This document shows, one piece after another, positions 11,442-18,603 of a stretch of DNA of 64,000 nucleotides; the first letter of the stretch is position 1; every line of letters begins with the position of its first letter. The position numbers and the translations under genes were made by a program. The DNA lies in contig JAGAZE010000036.1 in the NCBI GenBank assembly GCA_017940185.1, forward strand, positions 11,308-75,307. The letters run 5' to 3'. Under the pieces are notes generated by a model that worked only from the letters and a program-made list of their open reading frames with translations, did not search any database and was not told the DNA's origin. The DNA comes from Bacteroidaceae bacterium (GTDB taxonomy: Bacteria > Bacteroidota > Bacteroidia > Bacteroidales > Bacteroidaceae).

Positions 11442-13787
11442 TTATTCCACCACAACTTTTCTTCCTTGGAAGATGTAGATGCCCTTAGGCAGTCCGTTGG
11501 TGTTTTTGGCATTGCGTCGCACGATGTTGCCTTTCATATCGTAGACGTTGTGAGTGTTGATGCCTTCCACATCGGTTTCCACGCCGTCGATGGCGGTCAC
11601 CACTTTGTCGAAGGTGTACTGTATCTTGTCCGTTTTTCTTGTAGCCAACAGACAGTCGTAGGCGTAAAAATAGTCCGACACTGGCAGGTAGTTTGGCATT
11701 GTCTCATAGAAGTGGTATCCGTAGACGTTGGCTGTTGGGTTTTTGAGTGTGAGTTGTGCGGCATATTTTCTGCCACTGAAGGTAAACTCGTCAATGGTGA
11801 CAACTGCGACTCCTGTGCTTGCCTTGACCTGTTTCTGCATGAGCAGTCCCAGCTCGGTGTATTCCCAGTTGCGGTTGTTGACTTTTACGATGCACGGGCG
11901 GAATGCCTTGATGCCTGTGTTGACGGTTTTGAAGTTGATTTCGGTTTTTCCTGTCGTGGTATTCTGATATGTGTTGGTGAACTCTGCCACTTTAACGTCG
12001 GCTCCGAGCGCTTCTTGCAGTTCGGCTTGTGTCATGTCGAACGGCAGCCAGAGTGCTCTCCAGTGTCCGTTGGGGAACATCACGTTGGTGTTGACGTTGT
12101 AGGTTCCGGCGGCGTATGTCATTTCACTTTCGTTGCGTTCGTCGAGATAGAGCGACTGATATGTTGTTGCCGATGCCGCAGCGTTGCGGTAAGTGAAGTT
12201 GATTGTTCCGTCGCTGTTGAGTGTGATGTTGGTTATGCCGTGGTTGGCAAAGTCGGTTGCATCATCGCCTCCGTTGTAGCGTGTCATCTTCGGTGTGGAG
12301 GTGTCAGTGAATGCGTTGTTGGTATTGTAGGGATACACATCTCCTGCCTGTCCCTGATAGCTCTGCATGTTGTCGTCGGCGGGCATTATCTGCCAGCGCA
12401 TATGGTTGTTTTTCTTCTCTTCCCACTGGCGTGTGGTGTAGTTGTACTCATAGTATGTGCCGTAGGTGTTCACTCTGTTGTAGGCCCATGCGTAGTAGTT
12501 GTAGTCGATATGTGTGATGAGCAGTCCTTTCGGATTGTCGTTGTATGCGTACATTCTGGACACATTACGGTTTTCGAGGATGTAGTATTCTTCTCCCGTG
12601 GTGCTTTCGCAGTCGATGACATATAGTTCGCCGTTGCTCTCTATGGGTTTCATGTTTTTCACCTGCACAGGGTCGGTCAACACGATGGGTTCAAGCCATC
12701 CTGCAGTCCACTTTTCAAATCCAGAGTAGTCCATGGGGTTGAAGCCGTTTTCTTTATAGGAACCACTTCCCATGAGGTCCCATGATCCTACACCGATGTT
12801 GCCTGAGTAGGATGTGTCGTAGAGATCGGGAAATCCCATGCAGTGTGAGAATTCATGGCAGAATGTTCCTATTCCGCAGTTGTTGCTTCCGCTTCTTCCG
12901 CGCATCTCTGAAGAGCATGCATAGGTGTTGATGCGCATACCCTGCAACGTGAGAGCGGAACCTGTTCCCGAACTCAACGACCACTTATGTGGCCATATGG
13001 CATCGGTGGGTGCACCTTCGGCTTGGTTGTATCCGGCATAGAGTATGAAGACGTTGTCTACTTCTCCGTTGCCGTCCCAGTCGTAGTCGGCAAAGCGCAC
13101 GGAGTCTTGTACGAGTTCTACGGCTTCTTTCACCATTTCGGCTGGTCTGAGGTCGTGTGTTTCTCCTTGTTGCTCTCCATAGTAGACCATGTCTTGTGAC
13201 ACTGTCACGGGTCCGATGACATCGAATTGGAGGTCGAAGCGTCCGTAGCTTTGTTTGCGGAAGTAGTCGCGTATGCTGAGTTTGTAGTTTCCTTCAGAGA
13301 AATTGAGGGTGTTGGCCACCTTGTTGTAGAAGGCTTTTGGGTTTGTGGTGGTGTATTGCACGTCTTGGAAGTTGACCAAGATGATGAGTCCTTTTTTATT
13401 TCCTCTGAATGCGTCGAAGTTGCTGTGGTTTTGCGTTTTGCTCATTCCTTTTCTCAGGACGGGCTGCGGGTGTGCACACACGTTGTGCGCATCGGCTTCG
13501 CGTCGTGAGTTGGCGGCTTTGGCTTTGGCAACTATCTCTGTGGTTGTACGCTTGGCATAGCGCTTAACGCCTGGCAGGCTCGATTCGAGCGTGTAGATGT
13601 TGCCTTGTGCGTCGCGATAGTAGCTGAACCATTCATCGCCAATGAGTTGTGCCTGCACGGTCTGTCCATTGGTGAGTGTGATTGTGTGCCACAGGTTGGG
13701 GTCGGCTGGTATGGCACGTACTGTCAGTGCTGTGGTGCACATGAAGAGCAGCACTACCAGTGGGCGAAGGAGTTGTTGTGTATTCAT
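11442..13787 (-). CDS. M6 (immune inhibitor A-like) metalloprotease with T9SS C-terminal domain
   Basis: Signal peptide MNTQQ..TVRA; ILVNFQD, DYDWDGNGEVD, IWPHKW, HEFSHCMGFPDLY, WDLMGSG; CTD VYDMKG..LPKGIYIFQGRKVVVE. Confidence 0.9.
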   Translation of the reverse strand: MNTQQLLRPLVVLLFMCTTALTVRAIPADPNLWHTITLTNGQTVQAQLIGDEWFSYYRDAQGNIYTLESSLPGVKRYAKRTTTEIVAKAKAANSRREADAHNVCAHPQPVLRKGMSKTQNHSNFDAFRGNKKGLIILVNFQDVQYTTTNPKAFYNKVANTLNFSEGNYKLSIRDYFRKQSYGRFDLQFDVIGPVTVSQDMVYYGEQQGETHDLRPAEMVKEAVELVQDSVRFADYDWDGNGEVDNVFILYAGYNQAEGAPTDAIWPHKWSLSSGTGSALTLQGMRINTYACSSEMRGRSGSNNCGIGTFCHEFSHCMGFPDLYDTSYSGNIGVGSWDLMGSGSYKENGFNPMDYSGFEKWTAGWLEPIVLTDPVQVKNMKPIESNGELYVIDCESTTGEEYYILENRNVSRMYAYNDNPKGLLITHIDYNYYAWAYNRVNTYGTYYEYNYTTRQWEEKKNNHMRWQIMPADDNMQSYQGQAGDVYPYNTNNAFTDTSTPKMTRYNGGDDATDFANHGITNITLNSDGTINFTYRNAAASATTYQSLYLDERNESEMTYAAGTYNVNTNVMFPNGHWRALWLPFDMTQAELQEALGADVKVAEFTNTYQNTTTGKTEINFKTVNTGIKAFRPCIVKVNNRNWEYTELGLLMQKQVKASTGVAVVTIDEFTFSGRKYAAQLTLKNPTANVYGYHFYETMPNYLPVSDYFYAYDCLLATRKTDKIQYTFDKVVTAIDGVETDVEGINTHNVYDMKGNIVRRNAKNTNGLPKGIYIFQGRKVVVE

Positions 13788-13851
13788 GGGTGTTAAGGTA
13801 TTTGTTATGATTTTCTTTTTTGGGGAGAGTGGTGTTGAGGTTTTAGGGTTA

Positions 13852-13893
13852 CAAATGTAGTGTGTTTTTTTATATTCTACACATATTCTACAC
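13852..13893 (-). promoter_or_regulatory. -7 element plus 11-bp direct repeat upstream of the M6 protease
   Basis: TACATTTG at 13852-13859 (minus); atattctacac twice, at 13872 and 13883. Confidence 0.5.
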
Positions 13894-13921
13894 ATTTTTC
13901 TGCTTTCTTTCCGTGTGGGTG

Positions 13922-15112
13922 TCAGTATTTTATGTGGTACAAGTGTGTGGTGTTGATAAGTTTGTTGTATGGACTTTTGATGTAGATTGTTCCATCGGCA
14001 TCGATGGGTTTGGCATGTGCTGCGTATGCGTAGAGATTTCCTGCATTGATATAGATGTCGGCATTTGCCTTGATGGCCTTTGGTTTCGACAGCAGGCTTT
14101 CTCCTCTGGTGACGATGTTGACTTCTCCTCCGTTGATGGTGGTGTGGGCATCGCTTTTCATCCCTTTTGCATTATTGCCCAGACATAGCAGGTTGAGCAC
14201 TCCAGCTTCTACAATGATGTTGGCGTCGCTTTTCACTGCTGCGCAGTGTGTGGTGTCGTTGCTGGCGATGCTCGATTGTGCGTTGGTGATGATGGTGGTG
14301 TGTCCCCCTTCTATGAGAATGTCGGCTTCGCTGTTGAGTCCTTTTCCTCCGTTGGCTGTCAGATTGATGTTGGTTACGCTGCCGTTGATGAAGATGCCGT
14401 CGTTGGCTTTGATGCCATTGTTTCCTTTAGCTTCGATGAATAGAATACATCCTGCTCTCAGTCGGAAGAAGTCGTCGGTGGCGATAGCGTTGTGTGCGTT
14501 GCCGGTGACGTGGAGCGTTCCTTCTCCTGAGATGATGATGTCGCCTCGGTTGTAGAGCGCTCCTTTCATTTTGTGGTCAGCTATGGGAGTGTATGTGTTT
14601 CCGTCGACGAGGGTATTGATGGTGCCTCTTTGCAGCACGAGATACATTCTCTTGTTGTTGATGTTGTAGATGGCGGAGCCGTCGGTGCTGGCGAGAGTCA
14701 GGTTGTTGAGGTCGAGTCGGTATTTGTATTGGCTGTTGATGGCCAGTTGTCCGTTGTGTGACGTTCCGCTAATGATGTATTGCACATTCTCAAGTTGCGA
14801 TGTTATCATCAGGCGTGCGCCGTTGGCGGTGCATGATATGCCCGTGGGCAATTGTGATACTTCTACCTGATTGTTGTGGAATGCAATATGTATAGTGTGA
14901 CCGATGCTGAAGTTTTCCACCGAGTCGTTTGCAGGCATGGTGATGCTTTGTTCGTCGTCATCGGGTGTGCCGTAGTAGAAGCTGATATCTTTTATGTTGG
15001 CTTCTTCGTTGTTGTTGTATTGCTGTATCAATACTTCGAGTTCGGAGTCGTCGTTTTGGCATGCTGTGAAGGCGATGGCGCAAAGCAGCAGGAAAGTGGA
15101 GATGTGTCGCAT
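13922..15112 (-). CDS. Lipoprotein with Cthe_2159/DUF4353-type beta-helix carbohydrate-binding domain
   Basis: Lipobox FTAC followed by acidic QNDDSE; YIISGTSHNGQL, LNNLTL, GTINTLVDG, repeated (N/K)G(I/L)K motifs. Confidence 0.82.
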   Translation of the reverse strand: MRHISTFLLLCAIAFTACQNDDSELEVLIQQYNNNEEANIKDISFYYGTPDDDEQSITMPANDSVENFSIGHTIHIAFHNNQVEVSQLPTGISCTANGARLMITSQLENVQYIISGTSHNGQLAINSQYKYRLDLNNLTLASTDGSAIYNINNKRMYLVLQRGTINTLVDGNTYTPIADHKMKGALYNRGDIIISGEGTLHVTGNAHNAIATDDFFRLRAGCILFIEAKGNNGIKANDGIFINGSVTNINLTANGGKGLNSEADILIEGGHTTIITNAQSSIASNDTTHCAAVKSDANIIVEAGVLNLLCLGNNAKGMKSDAHTTINGGEVNIVTRGESLLSKPKAIKANADIYINAGNLYAYAAHAKPIDADGTIYIKSPYNKLINTTHLYHIKY

Positions 15113-15123
15113 GGTAAGGGGAA

Positions 15124-15158
15124 AGAGGAGGGAAGAGAGGAGGGAAGAGAGGAGGGAG
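15124..15158. repeat. 12-bp purine tandem repeat (agaggagggaag x ~3)
   Basis: Copies at 15124, 15136 and 15148 in the intergenic spacer. Confidence 0.8.
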
Positions 15159-15165
15159 CGGGGTA

Positions 15166-15915
15166 TTAGAATCGGAATTGGTATCCGAGTCCGAGAATGT
15201 GTTCGTTGTAGTCGTAGATGTCACCTTCTTCGTTGTTGATTTGGAATCGGTAGAATGCTTTAATGACGTGGTGCTTTTTTATTTTATAGTCGGTGCCGAT
15301 GGTGAGTCTTATTTGTTCAGTTCTCCACGCGTTGAACAGTTCGGCAGACACTTCCGGGTCCAGTTTCCAGTGTGGGAAGTCGTATTCCATTTTGAGTCTG
15401 GACCTCAGTTCGTGTTTAGCCTTTGCTCCTACGTTGTGTTGCTCCCATCGTTCGTCGTCGAAGTCGTATCGTGACACGCTTTTGTCGGGTCGGTAGGTGT
15501 ATTGCCATCTTTCGCGCAGAGAGATTGTGAATCGTTGAATTTGTATGGAAGCTTCAGCCCCAAGGAAAACTCTGTGTCTGATGTGGTAGTAGGACGGTCT
15601 CCAGTGTTTGAGGTTTATGGGAGTTGTGGTGTAGCTTATCTTTTCTTGTCTTTGTTCGTCGATGAACTTGTATCCTCCTTCAATTTTCAGGTTTCTGTTT
15701 GGTTTCCACGCTGCTGCTGCTTCGATGGTCCATCTGTCGGTGGTGCGCGCGTTGTTGCGTGTGCGGTATTCGCCTTCCAGACTTATGCTAAGCTGCTGCG
15801 ATAGTTTCTTCTGTGCTCCGAGGGTATACCATATTCCGAAGTCATCGCCCGTACTTTGTGCTCTGACGATGGTGCATAGTAGTAGGAGCAGGAGTGTGAG
15901 AGAGTGTTTTTTCAT
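15166..15915 (-). CDS. DUF2490-like outer-membrane beta-barrel protein
   Basis: Signal peptide; DDFGIW..KKLS, EGEYRTR, SLRERWQYT, LRSRLK; C-terminal aromatic HILGLGYQFRF. Alternative GTG start at 15936 overlaps the upstream stop. Confidence 0.8.
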   Translation of the reverse strand: MKKHSLTLLLLLLCTIVRAQSTGDDFGIWYTLGAQKKLSQQLSISLEGEYRTRNNARTTDRWTIEAAAAWKPNRNLKIEGGYKFIDEQRQEKISYTTTPINLKHWRPSYYHIRHRVFLGAEASIQIQRFTISLRERWQYTYRPDKSVSRYDFDDERWEQHNVGAKAKHELRSRLKMEYDFPHWKLDPEVSAELFNAWRTEQIRLTIGTDYKIKKHHVIKAFYRFQINNEEGDIYDYNEHILGLGYQFRF

Positions 15916-15932
15916 GACATGATGGTGTGTTG

Positions 15933-16598
15933 TCACACTTGTGTGAGGTCTTCGCTTTTGAGTTTCAGTTTGTTGTTTATTTCTGCCGGGTTTCCGTCAC
16001 CATTGTCGTTGTAGGTCACTTTGAGTATGGCCATGTCGCGCAACATATCGACGCTTCCCACTTCCACCTTTATCACCTGTATTCCGAGCCGTTGTTGCAG
16101 GTCGTCGATGAGTTGCTGTCGGCATTCGGGCTTGATGAGTTCTATGCGGTCGTATTGTATGAGTTTAGTAGGTTTCGCTTTGAGCATCATTTCGCAGAGG
16201 CATACCGCGAATAGTATGACGATGTTGGTGATGAGCGTTTCGCATAGGGGAATGTTGGTGGCCAGTGCATTGACGACAGCGAGTGTGATGACCACGAAGA
16301 GGTAGGTGAGTTCTCTTACCGGCATGGTTTCGGTGCGATATCGCATGATGGAGAAAATACCGAAGAGACCGATGCCGATGCCTATTCCTGTCTTTCCTTT
16401 GAGGTCGTCGAGCACGAATATCATGAAGAAGACGAGGAAGAAGATGGCTGTGGACATGAGCATAAACGTGAAGTAGAAGTCGCGCCGATGACTTTTTCGG
16501 TAGTAGAGTCTGTCGATAATAATCCAGTTGACGAGTGTGCAGATGGCAAAGCGCATGAGCATCAGGAGGAAGTCTTCTTGTAGTGTGAATTCAAACAT
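15933..16598 (-). CDS. DUF4956 family inner-membrane protein
   Basis: Several hydrophobic helices; GIGIGLFGIFSIMRYRT..RELTYLF signature; soluble C-terminal domain. Confidence 0.85.
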   Translation of the reverse strand: MFEFTLQEDFLLMLMRFAICTLVNWIIIDRLYYRKSHRRDFYFTFMLMSTAIFFLVFFMIFVLDDLKGKTGIGIGIGLFGIFSIMRYRTETMPVRELTYLFVVITLAVVNALATNIPLCETLITNIVILFAVCLCEMMLKAKPTKLIQYDRIELIKPECRQQLIDDLQQRLGIQVIKVEVGSVDMLRDMAILKVTYNDNGDGNPAEINNKLKLKSEDLTQV

Positions 16599-16627
16599 GG
16601 TATGGGAAGTTTGTGGAGCAGGTGATT

Positions 16628-16660
16628 TTGTTGCTGTGGTACAGCAACATACTGGACGGA
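16628..16660 (-). repeat. Dispersed intercistronic hairpin element, copy 2
   Basis: Sense strand gtatgttgctgt-acc-acagcaaca, perfect 9-bp stem. Confidence 0.75.
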
Positions 16661-16675
16661 GGGAGTATATGCGTG

Positions 16676-17476
16676 TTATAATGGGTTGTTGGCCTGTTGC
16701 TGCAGTCGCTTTATGTTGTGCAGTCGCTCTTTGAATCTGTTGACGCGTACAGTGTTGTCGGTCATTGCCCTTGCCAGGCTGTATTTGCTGAACGGTTGTG
16801 GGAAGATGCGCTGTTGTCGCAGCAATTGTGTGGCGTAGCTTGGTTGTCGGACGTCACGTTTGAGTTCGATGACTACGATGTGTTGCAACTGTTGTGTTGG
16901 TTGGTTGTTGAGTAGGTTGAATTGCAGTTGTGTGTCGATGGTCAGCCGTTCGGTGAGTTGTTTGTTGACGAGTGTGATGCGTTGGAATTGATTTTGCATT
17001 TTCGCCGTGAGTGTTTCGGGATCGTAGCGCAGGTGTTGCCGCAGGAATGGGTAGCAGTGTTGCTTTGTCCAGGGGTGAATGATGAACTGTTGCGGTGTGG
17101 TGTGGAGCGTGTCAGGTGTTTCTTTGAGTGTGATGCGCTGTTTGTTGGTTTTGCCGTGGTTGTCTTTTGTTTTCACTTCGAGGAAGTGTTGTTGGCTGTC
17201 GAGGTAGGATCTTATTCTCACCTTTTGTCGGTTGACGTGTCCATGCTGGTGCATGTTGTACATGTTATTGTCGGGCGTGTCGAAGTAGAGTGTGGCATAG
17301 TGTGCTATGCGCTGTCCGTTAATTTCCTGTACATGATATTGGTTGACAGCCATGGCGAGCAACTGATGCAACTTCTCCGGTGTTGTGAGATACTTGGTAT
17401 CGGTTCGTTGCATGAGCTTCACCTTCTGCATTTCTGCTAGTGTGATGGGAGCGAACTGTTGTAGCAGCGTGTCCAT
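16676..17476 (-). CDS. VTC-domain (polyphosphate polymerase / CYTH-TTM) protein
   Basis: RTDTKY, TLYFDT, KVRIRSY, FLEVKTK, ERLTID, VIELK and FSKY motifs. Confidence 0.88.
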   Translation of the reverse strand: MDTLLQQFAPITLAEMQKVKLMQRTDTKYLTTPEKLHQLLAMAVNQYHVQEINGQRIAHYATLYFDTPDNNMYNMHQHGHVNRQKVRIRSYLDSQQHFLEVKTKDNHGKTNKQRITLKETPDTLHTTPQQFIIHPWTKQHCYPFLRQHLRYDPETLTAKMQNQFQRITLVNKQLTERLTIDTQLQFNLLNNQPTQQLQHIVVIELKRDVRQPSYATQLLRQQRIFPQPFSKYSLARAMTDNTVRVNRFKERLHNIKRLQQQANNPL

Positions 17477-17498
17477 ATATTGTGTTCAAAGTATTGTG

Positions 17499-17506
17499 CA
17501 AAGATA
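17499..17506 (-). promoter_or_regulatory. -7 promoter element for the VTC operon
   Basis: TATCTTTG on the minus strand, 22 nt upstream of the ATG and downstream of the asd terminator. Confidence 0.7.
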
Positions 17507-17539: not shown

Positions 17540-17579
17540 ACAAAAAGTGCGCTCTGCTATCTGCGGGCGCACTTTTTGT
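17540..17579 (-). terminator. Rho-independent terminator after asd
   Basis: acaaaaagtgcgc / gcgcactttttgt inverted repeat. Confidence 0.8.
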
Positions 17580-17598
17580 GTCATTGAATTTGTCTCTG

Positions 17599-18603
17599 TT
17601 ATTTGTTCTTTTCGATGATCAGTTCTGCTATTTGCACTGCGTTAAGGGCTGCTCCTTTTCTTATTTGGTCTCCTGTGATCCACAGTGTGATGGCATTATC
17701 TTCGGCGATATCTCTTCTAATGCGTCCCACGTAGATGTTGTCGGTGCCTTGCGTGTAGAGGGGCATGGGGTATTTGGCGTGTTGTGTGTCGTCAACGAGT
17801 GTGCATCCTGGTGCCTGTACTATGGCGTTTCTGACGTTGTCGATGTTGAGTTGTTCTGCTGTCTGCACCCATATTGCTTCGCTGTGGCATCGCAGTGTGC
17901 TGACGCGGACGCATGTGGCCGAGCAGCGCACATTGGAGTGGAGTATCTTGCGCGTCTCATGATACATTTTCATCTCCTCTTTGGTGTAGTCGTTGTCGGT
18001 GAAGACGTCAATCTGTGGTATGACGTTGTAAGCCAGTTGGTGTGGAAATCGCTGTATGTGTGGTTGTTTTCCCTGTGCGATGTCGGCATACTGTTGTTCC
18101 ACCTCTTTCATGGCCAGTGCTCCGGCTCCGCTTGCGCTCTGATAGCTGGCAACGTGTATGCGTTGTATGTGCGACAGTCGCTCTATCGGCATGAGTGCTG
18201 TGACCATCATGATGGTGGTGCAGTTTGGGTTGGCAATAATGTTGCGTGGGTGTTGCAGCGCATCGCTCGGGTTGCATTCGGGCACTACGAGCGGCACGTC
18301 GTCGCACATGCGGAAAGCACTGGAGTTGTCTATCATGATGGCTCCGTGTCGTGTGATGTCATCGGCATATTCTCGGCTCACAGCGGCACCGGCAGAAGTG
18401 AAAACGATGTGTGTGTTGCTGAAGAGGTCGCCGTGTTGCAGGCGTTCTACTACGACGGGATTGTTGCGGAAGGTGTATGTTTGTCCGGCACTGCGTTCTG
18501 ATCCGAAGAGTCTCAACTGTCTGACGGGAAAGTTGCGTTGTTGTAGCACTTGCAGCAATTCCTGTCCCACGGCACCACTGGCGCCTACGATGGATATGTT
18601 CAT
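17599..18603 (-). CDS. asd: Aspartate-semialdehyde dehydrogenase
   Basis: [52 protein letters not shown]. Confidence 0.96.

Follow-up and report, generated by a model that had tools for sequence, protein, structure and literature searches.

Does a four-gene cassette in a rumen bacterium encode a machine that makes a phosphate polymer and places it outside the cell? The question is raised by the window, meaning the whole 64,000-nucleotide stretch of a Bacteroidaceae contig (JAGAZE010000036.1) that was analysed, the source being a bacterium of a sheep/cattle gut (rumen) lineage. On its minus strand (17476-13922), four co-directional genes lie downstream of a single TAnnTTTG motif (Table 1). Their content makes such a machine plausible, and the best explanation of the operon as a whole, namely synthesis, export and surface holding of polyphosphate (polyP), is given a probability of roughly one in three.

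Table 1. Features of the four-gene unit and its upstream boundary in the window.
Feature	Coordinates	Strand	Evidence
Hairpin with A/T runs on its flanks (AAAAAGTGCGC...GCGCACTTTTT)	17553..17582	-	past asd stop; terminator-like hits 17553-17567 and 17566-17582
Bacteroidota-type -7 promoter motif (TATCTTTG)	17499..17506	-	sequence read and pattern scan; VTC ATG 22 nt downstream
VTC/TTM-fold enzyme, 266 aa, soluble	16676..17476	-	PF09359, E 7.9e-33
DUF4956 inner-membrane protein, 221 aa	15933..16598	-	PF16316, E 5.8e-49
DUF2490 outer-membrane beta-barrel, 249 aa, signal peptide	15166..15915	-	PF10677, E 2.7e-26
Cthe_2159-type right-handed beta-helix lipoprotein, 396 aa	13922..15112	-	PF14262, E 4.9e-38

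The genes run from the VTC/TTM enzyme through the DUF4956 membrane protein and the DUF2490 barrel to the Cthe_2159 beta-helix lipoprotein, with intergenic spacings of 77, 17 and 53 nt, and all four reading frames have the properties ascribed to them by a first-pass annotation of the DNA. The promoter motif, TATCTTTG, sits downstream of the asd stop and of the hairpin, which is likely both the asd terminator and the upstream limit of the unit. A minus-strand pattern scan from 17499 to 13860 found no further TAnnTTTG, the next being at 13859-13852, ahead of an M6 protease gene. With 35 occurrences in the window against 22.7 expected, the motif shows only modest enrichment and by itself is weak evidence. 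The VTC-DUF4956(-DUF2490)(-Cthe_2159) order is found again in dozens of other genomes, an arrangement far beyond chance, and the proposal of a single conserved gene unit is upheld.

The product of the first gene scores 114.4 bits against the VTC model (curated cut-off 23), covering model positions 1-232 of 235, and this is the sole domain that a Pfam search finds in it. Its AF2 model (pLDDT 85, pTM 0.83) has an eight-stranded tunnel fold nearest to Vtc4: the top Foldseek matches in the PDB are all Vtc4 (3g3q, 3g3r, 7ytj_D and 8i6v_E), with E values around 1e-12 (best 3g3q, 1.5e-12) and TM scores of 0.60-0.63, and the inactive Vtc2 and the TTM hydrolases ygiF, CthTTM-like and ThTPase rank below them, with hydrolase matches at E 1e-8 or weaker. 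A profile alignment with Vtc4 (E 7.6e-17) pairs K28, R87, R89, K102, R166, E204, S230 and K231 with Vtc4 K200, R264, R266, K281, R361, E426, S457 and K458, so that eight of the nine residues described as essential in a cryo-EM study (10.1101/2023.01.27.525886) are retained. These eight are invariant, E204 being at least 90% conserved, across 30 to 73 diverse homologues. The kept set includes K231, the equivalent of the activity-defining K458, a position taken by Ile or Leu in the inactive Vtc2/3 (10.1101/2023.01.27.525886). The ninth residue, Tyr359, which contacts triphosphate, is not kept; the aligned Phe164 is near-invariant in the subfamily of the window enzyme, and Tyr is retained there in the other bacterial VTC subfamily (RxEYKY...YEREAF). 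In yeast Vtc4, the Y359F change reduces polyP (10.1101/2023.01.27.525886). The first position of the hydrolase ExExK motif is Arg24 in the window enzyme, and the two-glutamate set is absent. The initial assignment to the VTC/TTM enzymes is borne out, and the protein may be regarded, from its residues and modelled fold, as a Vtc4-like candidate polyphosphate polymerase. The literature searched yielded no assay of any bacterial VTC-domain protein and, as had been remarked of this operon, no functional characterisation.

No resemblance between the membrane partner and the Vtc1-type channel of the eukaryotic VTC complex was detected, which weakens the analogy first drawn. A DUF202 (Vtc1-type) match was found in one of 21 DUF4956 members, at E 3.1 only, and a fold search with the DUF4956 model returned no Vtc chain and no solved fold, an absence that is not decisive by itself. 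The AF2 model (pLDDT 78) comprises five helices and a C-terminal ACT-like beta-alpha-beta-beta domain, with a topology that we infer to be N-out/C-in. The MgtC model (PF02308) matches the window protein at E 0.29 and 11 of the 21 members, with a best E of 1.3e-5 and all matches under the cut-off; ACT models match 3-4 of the 21, and hhalign against an alignment of eight true MgtC proteins gives E 3.9e-4 with a probability of 36%. From these profiles and the model, DUF4956 appears distantly related to MgtC/SapB proteins, its tail being ACT-like. Its invariant columns, drawn from the 21 phylum-wide members, form a G...RxRT motif (G77, R86, R88, T89) at the end of helix 3 that faces the cytoplasm.

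The two outer components belong to recognizable families. The barrel scores 92.9 bits against the PF10677 cut-off of 29.8, a family equivalent to TCDB 1.B.81; it also matches other outer-membrane barrel families more weakly, and its structural neighbours in the Atlas (TM 0.88-0.95) are all DUF2490. Translation probably begins at ATG 15915 (N-terminus MKKHSLTLLLLLLCTIVRAQ...), within a reading frame that opens at GTG 15936, and the protein ends in ...YQFRF, with an aromatic last residue. Most DUF2490 genes are not linked to VTC; the linked barrels are no more basic than the unlinked ones, and this barrel is not unusually basic beside unlinked DUF2490 proteins. The lipoprotein (131.4 bits, cut-off 25.8) is similar to the crystal structure of Cthe_2159 (4peu/4phb, E 7.3e-13). 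In surface lipoproteins of Bacteroidota, acidic residues a few positions after the lipobox Cys serve as an export signal, and here the lipobox ...AFTAC is followed by QNDDSE, an acidic tail of this type. In some 25 orthologues encoded immediately behind the barrel, the sequence is C-[VQE]-[KNS]-D-D-[TS]-D, a conserved C-x-x-D-D-x-D/E motif which strengthens the original reading of that tail, and the window lipoprotein is predicted to be surface-exposed.

Comparison across genomes separates a core from its accessories. In all 78 Bacteroidales loci the gene directly downstream of VTC is DUF4956, which also follows 28 of 29 full VTC matches in a 151-genome sample of the phylum, and one DUF4956+VTC fusion protein exists. 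The barrel is linked to the core at 62/74 Bacteroidales loci versus 7/27 phylum genomes, and a co-directional Cthe_2159 lipoprotein gene at 36/59 versus 4/27. VTC and DUF4956 are thus an obligate core, and the barrel and beta-helix lineage-specific accessories; co-occurrence of the four genes holds for the pair, but not for the whole set, as the outer two accompany it only in some lineages. Cthe_2159 genes occur mainly in VTC-positive genomes (7 of 8). Other lineages join other trans-envelope parts to the core. A divergent periplasmic adaptor, without an ordinary pump, stands immediately upstream of VTC in 7 of 20 phylum loci; the profile of this adaptor family matches ZneB, AcrA, EmrA and MacA, and HlyD_3 matches three of the seven members. 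DUF4956-like, HlyD-like and OEP-like genes are consecutive in family f25, and at one locus a Porin_O_P-like (phosphate-porin-like) barrel occupies the position of DUF2490. These adaptor, OEP-like and porin-like parts favour an export role. Overall, the first interpretation is supported in part. One genome (G135) has DUF4956, DUF2490 and CotH with no Pfam-detectable VTC. The cassette of the window is best explained as the Bacteroidales version of a VTC-DUF4956 core that is widespread in bacteria, extended by outer-envelope parts.

The genomic background adds two further elements. PPK1, PPK2 and PPX are absent from the genome to which the window belongs (G000, 89% complete) and from its two 100%-complete order-mates, all of which carry the cassette; any polyP in this lineage would therefore come from VTC, and cytoplasmic reuse of polyP by a PPX-type exopolyphosphatase or PPK2 is not available. 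The system is not a general substitute for PPK, since 24 of the 27 VTC-positive genomes in the phylum sample also have PPK1. The strongest partner, overlooked in the first-pass annotation, is the CotH kinase family, which is coded for in every VTC-positive genome sampled (27/27, versus 30/124 VTC-negative ones) and in 45/48 DUF4956-positive versus 12/103 DUF4956-negative genomes. Within family f25 both occur in an identical set of 16 of the 22 genomes, and CotH adjoins the core in loci L069, L077, L090, L100 and L102. The association is overstated, because related genomes are not independent. This CotH link, the absence of PPK1, PPK2 and PPX in the lineage, the MgtC-like appearance of DUF4956 and the ordinary charge of the barrel are the points that are new here.

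In the preferred reading, the soluble Vtc4-like tunnel enzyme would join NTP gamma-phosphates into polyP on the cytoplasmic side of the inner membrane, acting on or with a DUF4956 oligomer whose invariant Arg-x-Arg-Thr motif would face the cytoplasm. DUF4956 would conduct or gate the chain to the periplasm, the DUF2490 barrel would let it cross the outer membrane, and the surface lipoprotein may bind, hold or trim the polyanion; the product could be functionally coupled to secreted kinases of the CotH family, whose genes lie elsewhere in the genome. Against this stand the Phe164 substitution, the apparent kinship of DUF4956 with MgtC/SapB proteins, known as regulators rather than channels, its lack of detectable resemblance to Vtc1/DUF202, and the many DUF2490 barrels unlinked to VTC, with no extra basic charge in those that are linked; the PPK1 genes of most VTC-positive genomes, the VTC-less gene set of G135 and the slight effects of the S. 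intermedius deletions described below also count against it. A doubtful alternative, though one to be taken seriously, uses the same facts otherwise: VTC would hydrolyse triphosphates or nucleotides, or act as a sensor, and would be tethered to the membrane by a DUF4956 of MgtC type that binds a small ligand through its ACT-like domain. The barrel and lipoprotein would do something else, for example binding and uptake of pectin, an anionic plant polysaccharide, in the rumen. The sub-threshold MgtC and ACT matches and the MgtC architecture are consistent with it, as are the regulatory role of Salmonella MgtC, which is connected with phosphate and ATP homeostasis (cited in 10.1101/2024.04.20.589940), the Phe in place of Tyr359, the fact that other TTM enzymes, hydrolases or cyclases, match the fold as well, the binding of cellulose and polygalacturonate by Cthe_2159 itself, and the dispensability of both outer proteins in many lineages. 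It has to contend with residues that are those of active Vtc4, K458 included, with Arg24 where hydrolases have the first Glu of ExExK, with adaptors and OEP-like genes that would be senseless beside a cytoplasmic regulator, and with the Cthe_2159 genes found in VTC-positive genomes and the barrel-then-lipoprotein order kept behind DUF4956 in dozens of loci.

CotH could also be the main purpose rather than a companion. As no ATP is present outside the cell, the core might export polyP or another phosphoanhydride mainly as phosphoryl donor for extracytoplasmic CotH kinases acting on surface or matrix targets, with the barrel and beta-helix routing or holding the donor. The genome-wide association, the adjoining loci and the joint travel of CotH, VTC and DUF4956 at Gram-positive pel loci speak for this, yet it is distinctly unlikely: polyP use is known for no CotH-fold kinase, the CotH gene of this genome is on a separate contig, twelve CotH-positive genomes have no DUF4956, and relatedness inflates the counts. 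Very improbable is the converse reading, also raised at the outset, in which lipoprotein, barrel and DUF4956 capture and import external polyP. The layout would suit either direction, the rumen is phosphate-rich, and at one locus a Porin_O_P-like barrel replaces DUF2490; Vtc4-type enzymes, however, polymerise and have no known depolymerising role, the adaptor/OEP sets of sister cassettes are export devices, and the lineage has no PPX or PPK2 with which to use imported polyP. To return to synthesis and export, its broadest version is a PPK-independent second bacterial route to polyP, with a split Vtc4-like polymerase and with DUF4956 and outer parts threading the chain to the surface, where it would act as a matrix or cation store and supply phosphoryl groups to secreted CotH kinases, being the sole polyP system of this rumen lineage, which lacks PPK1, PPK2 and PPX, and devoted entirely to the cell exterior; this is a speculative proposal and rather improbable in full.

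Among known systems, the eukaryotic VTC complex (yeast Vtc4/Vtc3/Vtc1; 3g3q, 7ytj, 8i6v) shares the tunnel (TTM) fold, eight of nine residues and an obligate membrane partner, and yeast VTC couples synthesis of the polymer to its passage through the membrane. The bacterial enzyme, in contrast, is separate, soluble and 266 aa long, with Phe for Tyr359, and the pair has neither an SPX domain nor, fused or as partner, the 3-TM Vtc1/DUF202 domain of the pentameric channel, the enzyme having only PF09359 and its partner PF16316; nothing in the eukaryotic complex corresponds to the outer-membrane and surface parts. MgtC/SapB proteins likewise have a membrane domain of five helices and, C-terminal to it, an ACT-like domain in the cytoplasm, but the similarity is weak and sub-threshold, the G...RxRT motif is DUF4956's own, and MgtC is unpaired with a TTM enzyme. 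Synthase-dependent secretion systems (alginate, cellulose, PNAG, Pel) show the same layout of inner-membrane polymerase, outer-membrane barrel and surface or periplasmic handlers in one operon. Only this general layout is alike, as none of the four genes codes for a glycosyltransferase synthase, co-polymerase, c-di-GMP receptor, TPR scaffold or 16-18-strand porin; the barrel is of another family and small (~230 mature residues), and the polymer would be inorganic. A further comparison is with the accessory set of Gram-positive pel loci, CotH/'polyphosphate polymerase'/DUF4956 (Whitfield et al. 2020, 10.1101/768473; SIR_1592-1594 in Streptococcus intermedius, 10.1101/2024.04.20.589940), with the same core and the same CotH link. 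Single deletions of VTC, DUF4956 and CotH in S. intermedius left Pel production and aggregation essentially unchanged, with a small decrease in the DUF4956 mutant only (10.1101/2024.04.20.589940). Those loci adjoin Pel genes and have no outer-membrane barrel, whereas here pel genes are absent, CotH is unlinked, and the barrel and Cthe_2159 lipoprotein are added. Tripartite efflux and secretion systems combine an adaptor with a TolC-like channel; the window has neither and the sister cassettes lack an ABC, RND or MFS pump, but those cassettes do carry, beside the same core, a divergent adaptor or a HlyD-like and OEP-like pair.

The four genes and the unit they form are real. The first-pass annotation had described a VTC-domain protein, a DUF4956 membrane protein, a beta-barrel and a Cthe_2159 lipoprotein, read in this order from one Bacteroidota-type -7 promoter motif (TAnnTTTG), and the description proved correct throughout. 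Spacing is tight across all four minus-strand genes, and for the lipoprotein the crystal structure of Cthe_2159 is a further match (E 7e-13). A pattern scan of the window found no other TAnnTTTG on the minus strand 3' of TATCTTTG before 13859-13852, where an M6 metalloprotease gene has its own motif, TACATTTG; this gene adjoins the cassette in just 3 of 80 related loci and is thus probably a separate unit.

Features of the four-gene unit and of the genes bordering it
Feature	Positions	Strand	Length	Evidence and remarks
asd gene	17599-18603			NF011456 E 2.6e-129; hairpin, then four-gene unit directly behind
TATCTTTG promoter motif	17506-17499	minus		22 nt upstream of first ATG
VTC-domain protein	16676-17476	minus	266 aa	PF09359 E 7.9e-33
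DUF4956 protein	15933-16598	minus	221 aa	PF16316 E 5.8e-49
DUF2490 barrel	15166-15915	minus	249 aa	from likely ATG; PF10677 E 2.7e-26; signal peptide, FRF C-terminus
Cthe_2159 lipoprotein	13922-15112	minus	396 aa	PF14262 E 4.9e-38; ...AFTAC then QNDDSE
M6 (immune inhibitor A-like) metalloprotease	11442-13895	minus		likely start 13787 (MNTQQLL...)

The window DNA turns up in gut metagenomes of sheep and cattle, from about ten studies. One sheep-gut RNA-seq run yielded contigs in the lipoprotein (14112-14317), the barrel (15264-15646), the VTC/DUF4956 junction (16504-16682) and VTC (16912-17257), each with 0-4 differing letters at a depth of 2.5-5; since RNA libraries can hold DNA, such low-depth coverage of all four genes is not proof of transcription or of a single transcript. 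Strain variation was seen in one sheep-gut run (X6), in the form of a 12-nt deletion variant at 15124, within the 53-nt spacer between barrel and lipoprotein.

Conservation across loci and genomes rules out chance adjacency of the four genes, and it is very uneven among them. In a Bacteroidales set of 80 loci, annotated by local HMMs, DUF4956 follows VTC in all 78 that have room, the DUF2490 barrel comes next in 62 of 74, and a co-directional Cthe_2159 gene adjoins in 36 of 59. Pfam model searches of an evenly sampled phylum set of 151 genomes found VTC in 27, DUF4956 in 48, DUF2490 in 48, Cthe_2159 in 10 and CotH in 57. By coordinates, DUF4956 lies immediately 3' of 28 of the 29 full VTC matches in this sample. 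DUF2490 is next to VTC in only 7 of the 27 VTC-positive genomes, most DUF2490 genes being unlinked, and two families (f5 and f6) are rich in DUF2490 genes and have no VTC. Cthe_2159 is rare but concentrated: of 8 solid cases, 7 are in VTC-positive genomes, 4 of them adjacent. From these linkage counts, the core consists of two genes, VTC and DUF4956, and the barrel and lipoprotein are lineage-specific. The proposed layout of one gene per envelope compartment would hold for the window and for two complete genomes of its order (G075 and G119), which keep all four genes with Cthe_2159 before or after the core; as a general rule it gives way to a constant VTC-DUF4956 pair with lineage-specific elaboration. 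A conserved 142-aa secreted protein lies 5' of VTC in the two same-order genomes (L083:7532-7957 and L084:7175-7603); the window lacks it, asd there directly adjoining the promoter. Another Cthe_2159 protein of the window's genome is longer (658 aa; contig C9, L124:6530-8503, plus strand); its gene is unlinked to VTC and precedes that of a BspA-type leucine-rich-repeat protein.

With 6014 representative clusters (50% identity, E <= 0.001) the VTC family is a large one, and the window enzyme is a genuine Vtc4-like tunnel protein. In PDB sequence searches, neither the single VTC sequence nor a narrow Bacteroidales profile turned up a solved relative; a profile of 73 sequences got no further than Vtc2, an inactive yeast subunit, and an alignment mixing both bacterial subfamilies was the sole one to reach the polymerase subunit Vtc4 (E 7.6e-17). 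The AF2 model (pLDDT 85) has Vtc4 as its best fold match (3g3q, 3g3r, 7ytj and 8i6v; E about 1e-12, TM 0.60-0.63), with inactive Vtc2 and the hydrolytic TTM enzymes ranked lower. Counted on the printed alignment against published numbering (10.1101/2023.01.27.525886), Vtc4 residues K200, R264, R266, K281, R361, E426, S457 and K458 correspond to window K28, R87, R89, K102, R166, E204, S230 and K231. The position of K458 is occupied by Ile or Leu in the inactive Vtc2/3 subunits (10.1101/2023.01.27.525886), and the retained lysine is the strongest argument from sequence for a polymerase. Vtc4 Y359 is replaced by F164, a real difference, because Y359F lowers polyP in yeast (10.1101/2023.01.27.525886); Phe is near-invariant in the window's subfamily, and Tyr is kept by the other bacterial subfamily. 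That the window enzyme makes polyP is given a little less than even odds.

The membrane partner is more difficult to place. The AF2 model of DUF4956 (pLDDT 78) shows five long helices, with a beta-alpha-beta-beta domain at the C-terminus, and the protein is predicted to be N-out and C-in, since the basic loops 32-41 and 86-96 read as cytoplasmic under the positive-inside rule. Only G77, R86, R88 and F101 are invariant among 21 phylum-wide members, L78 and T89 being nearly so, and G...RxRT at the cytoplasmic end of helix 3 defines the DUF4956 signature. Foldseek returned nothing below E 0.02, and a wide VIA-align search gave generic helical bundles (best Z 7.8) and no matching solved fold. DUF4956 does not look like Vtc1, no Vtc1-like match being seen in these fold searches, which does not exclude one. 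A remark in a preprint on S. intermedius (10.1101/2024.04.20.589940) prompted a comparison with MgtC: sub-threshold PF02308 (MgtC) matches occur in 11 of the 21 members (best E 1.3e-5), a few members match ACT models, and hhalign against eight true MgtC proteins gave E 3.9e-4 at a probability of 36%. A distant kinship with MgtC/SapB is plausible, though not established. Fused forms (one DUF4956+VTC and one DedA+VTC protein, each on a single contig) are too thin to weigh, and a single ORF matching both DUF4956 and DUF2490 (L074:6383-7828) most likely reflects the loss of a stop codon or a faulty assembly, not a real fusion.

An envelope export role is the best-supported reading of the module. 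The idea of a basic barrel lumen was rejected: the whole-barrel charge is much the same in VTC-linked DUF2490 barrels (n=70; median net charge +6, pI 9.2) and unlinked ones (n=17; +5, pI 9.24) and hence unspecific, and an atlas structure search with the barrel returned DUF2490 clusters only. A 2026 preprint (10.64898/2026.07.29.741452) describes, in 238 DUF2490 models, two cations, two anions and a tyrosine that form a buried network, and an iron-dependent stimulon table (PMC10434189) gives -7.6-fold (value 0.175) for BT3498-99, the B. thetaiotaomicron homologues with DUF4956 and DUF2490. Elsewhere in the phylum other envelope parts accompany the core. Directly 5' of VTC, 7 of 20 phylum loci code for a conserved, N-terminally anchored protein of about 357 aa, whose profile matches periplasmic adaptors (ZneB at E 6e-5, MexC-like, EmrA, AcrA and MacA) and of which 3 of the 7 members match HlyD_3; no ordinary pump is present at these loci. 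Weak matches put HlyD-like and OEP-like genes behind a DUF4956-like gene in family f25, and in one genome (G149) a 334-aa barrel ending in ...QIRW occupies the DUF2490 slot between DUF4956 and CotH (L100:8425-9426) and matches phosphate-selective porin O/P marginally (PF07396; 22 bits, cut-off 20.9). Such independent recruitment of export hardware is the best argument for something leaving the cell via the module. Two f25 loci (L087 of G084 and L088 of G108) show the row YceI, DUF6580, DUF4956-like, HlyD-like and OEP-like, and neither genome has a Pfam-detectable VTC. The whole chain, in which VTC would make polyP to be threaded through DUF4956 and the barrel to the surface lipoprotein, is assigned a probability of about one third.

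What the module may handle can be weighed against the polyP enzymes of its hosts. PPK1 and PPK2 are absent from the window's genome (89% complete) and likewise from two 100%-complete order-mates, and PPX/GppA was not found in any of these three genomes. The cassette is thus the only recognisable polyP enzyme in this lineage, which fits an extracytoplasmic fate of the product, the route of reuse being missing (no PPX-type exopolyphosphatase, no PPK2), or, alternatively, no polyP at all. Since PPK1, PPK2 and PPX are missing and the cassette is kept, any polyP in this lineage must stem from the operon, and the lineage offers a natural null background. VTC is not a general replacement for PPK1, as 24 of the 27 VTC-positive genomes have PPK1.

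A candidate recipient is CotH, which is present in all 27 VTC-positive genomes of the 151-genome sample and in 45 of 48 DUF4956-positive versus 12 of 103 DUF4956-negative genomes; related genomes are not independent in these counts, yet the pattern covers many families. Within f25, DUF4956-like and CotH go together: 16 of 22 genomes have both, and exactly the DUF4956-like-positive ones carry CotH. The CotH of the window's genome is 633 aa long, has a signal peptide and a discoidin domain, and is on a separate contig. It is the genome's only CotH gene (C38, L123:6619-8520, minus strand; F5/8 type C domain), and 5' of it on the same strand (L123:8546-13403) are a 5'-nucleotidase-like phosphoesterase (Metallophos + 5_nucleotid_C) and three proteins (226, 310 and 389 aa) without any Pfam match; this gene group may be a second envelope operon. 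In another genome DUF4956 and DUF2490 lie beside a convergent CotH gene (L085, G135:C1:2176000-2192000), the genome having no VTC, no PPK1 and two PPK2 genes, and at L086 (G111) the genes behind DUF4956 code for a secreted protein of 341 aa and for a metallophosphoesterase of purple-acid-phosphatase-like type. The full reading, in which exported polyP would also supply CotH, seems unlikely.

The triad of CotH, VTC and DUF4956 also occurs at Gram-positive pel loci (10.1101/768473; 10.1101/2024.04.20.589940), and in print the cassette is known just as unexplained gene content. Published accounts (e.g. PMC10657179) trace bacterial polyP to PPK1 and PPK2 and regard VTC as a eukaryotic invention; a working bacterial VTC module would, if true, represent a second route of polyP synthesis, explain extracellular polyP and give the secreted CotH kinases a possible energy source.
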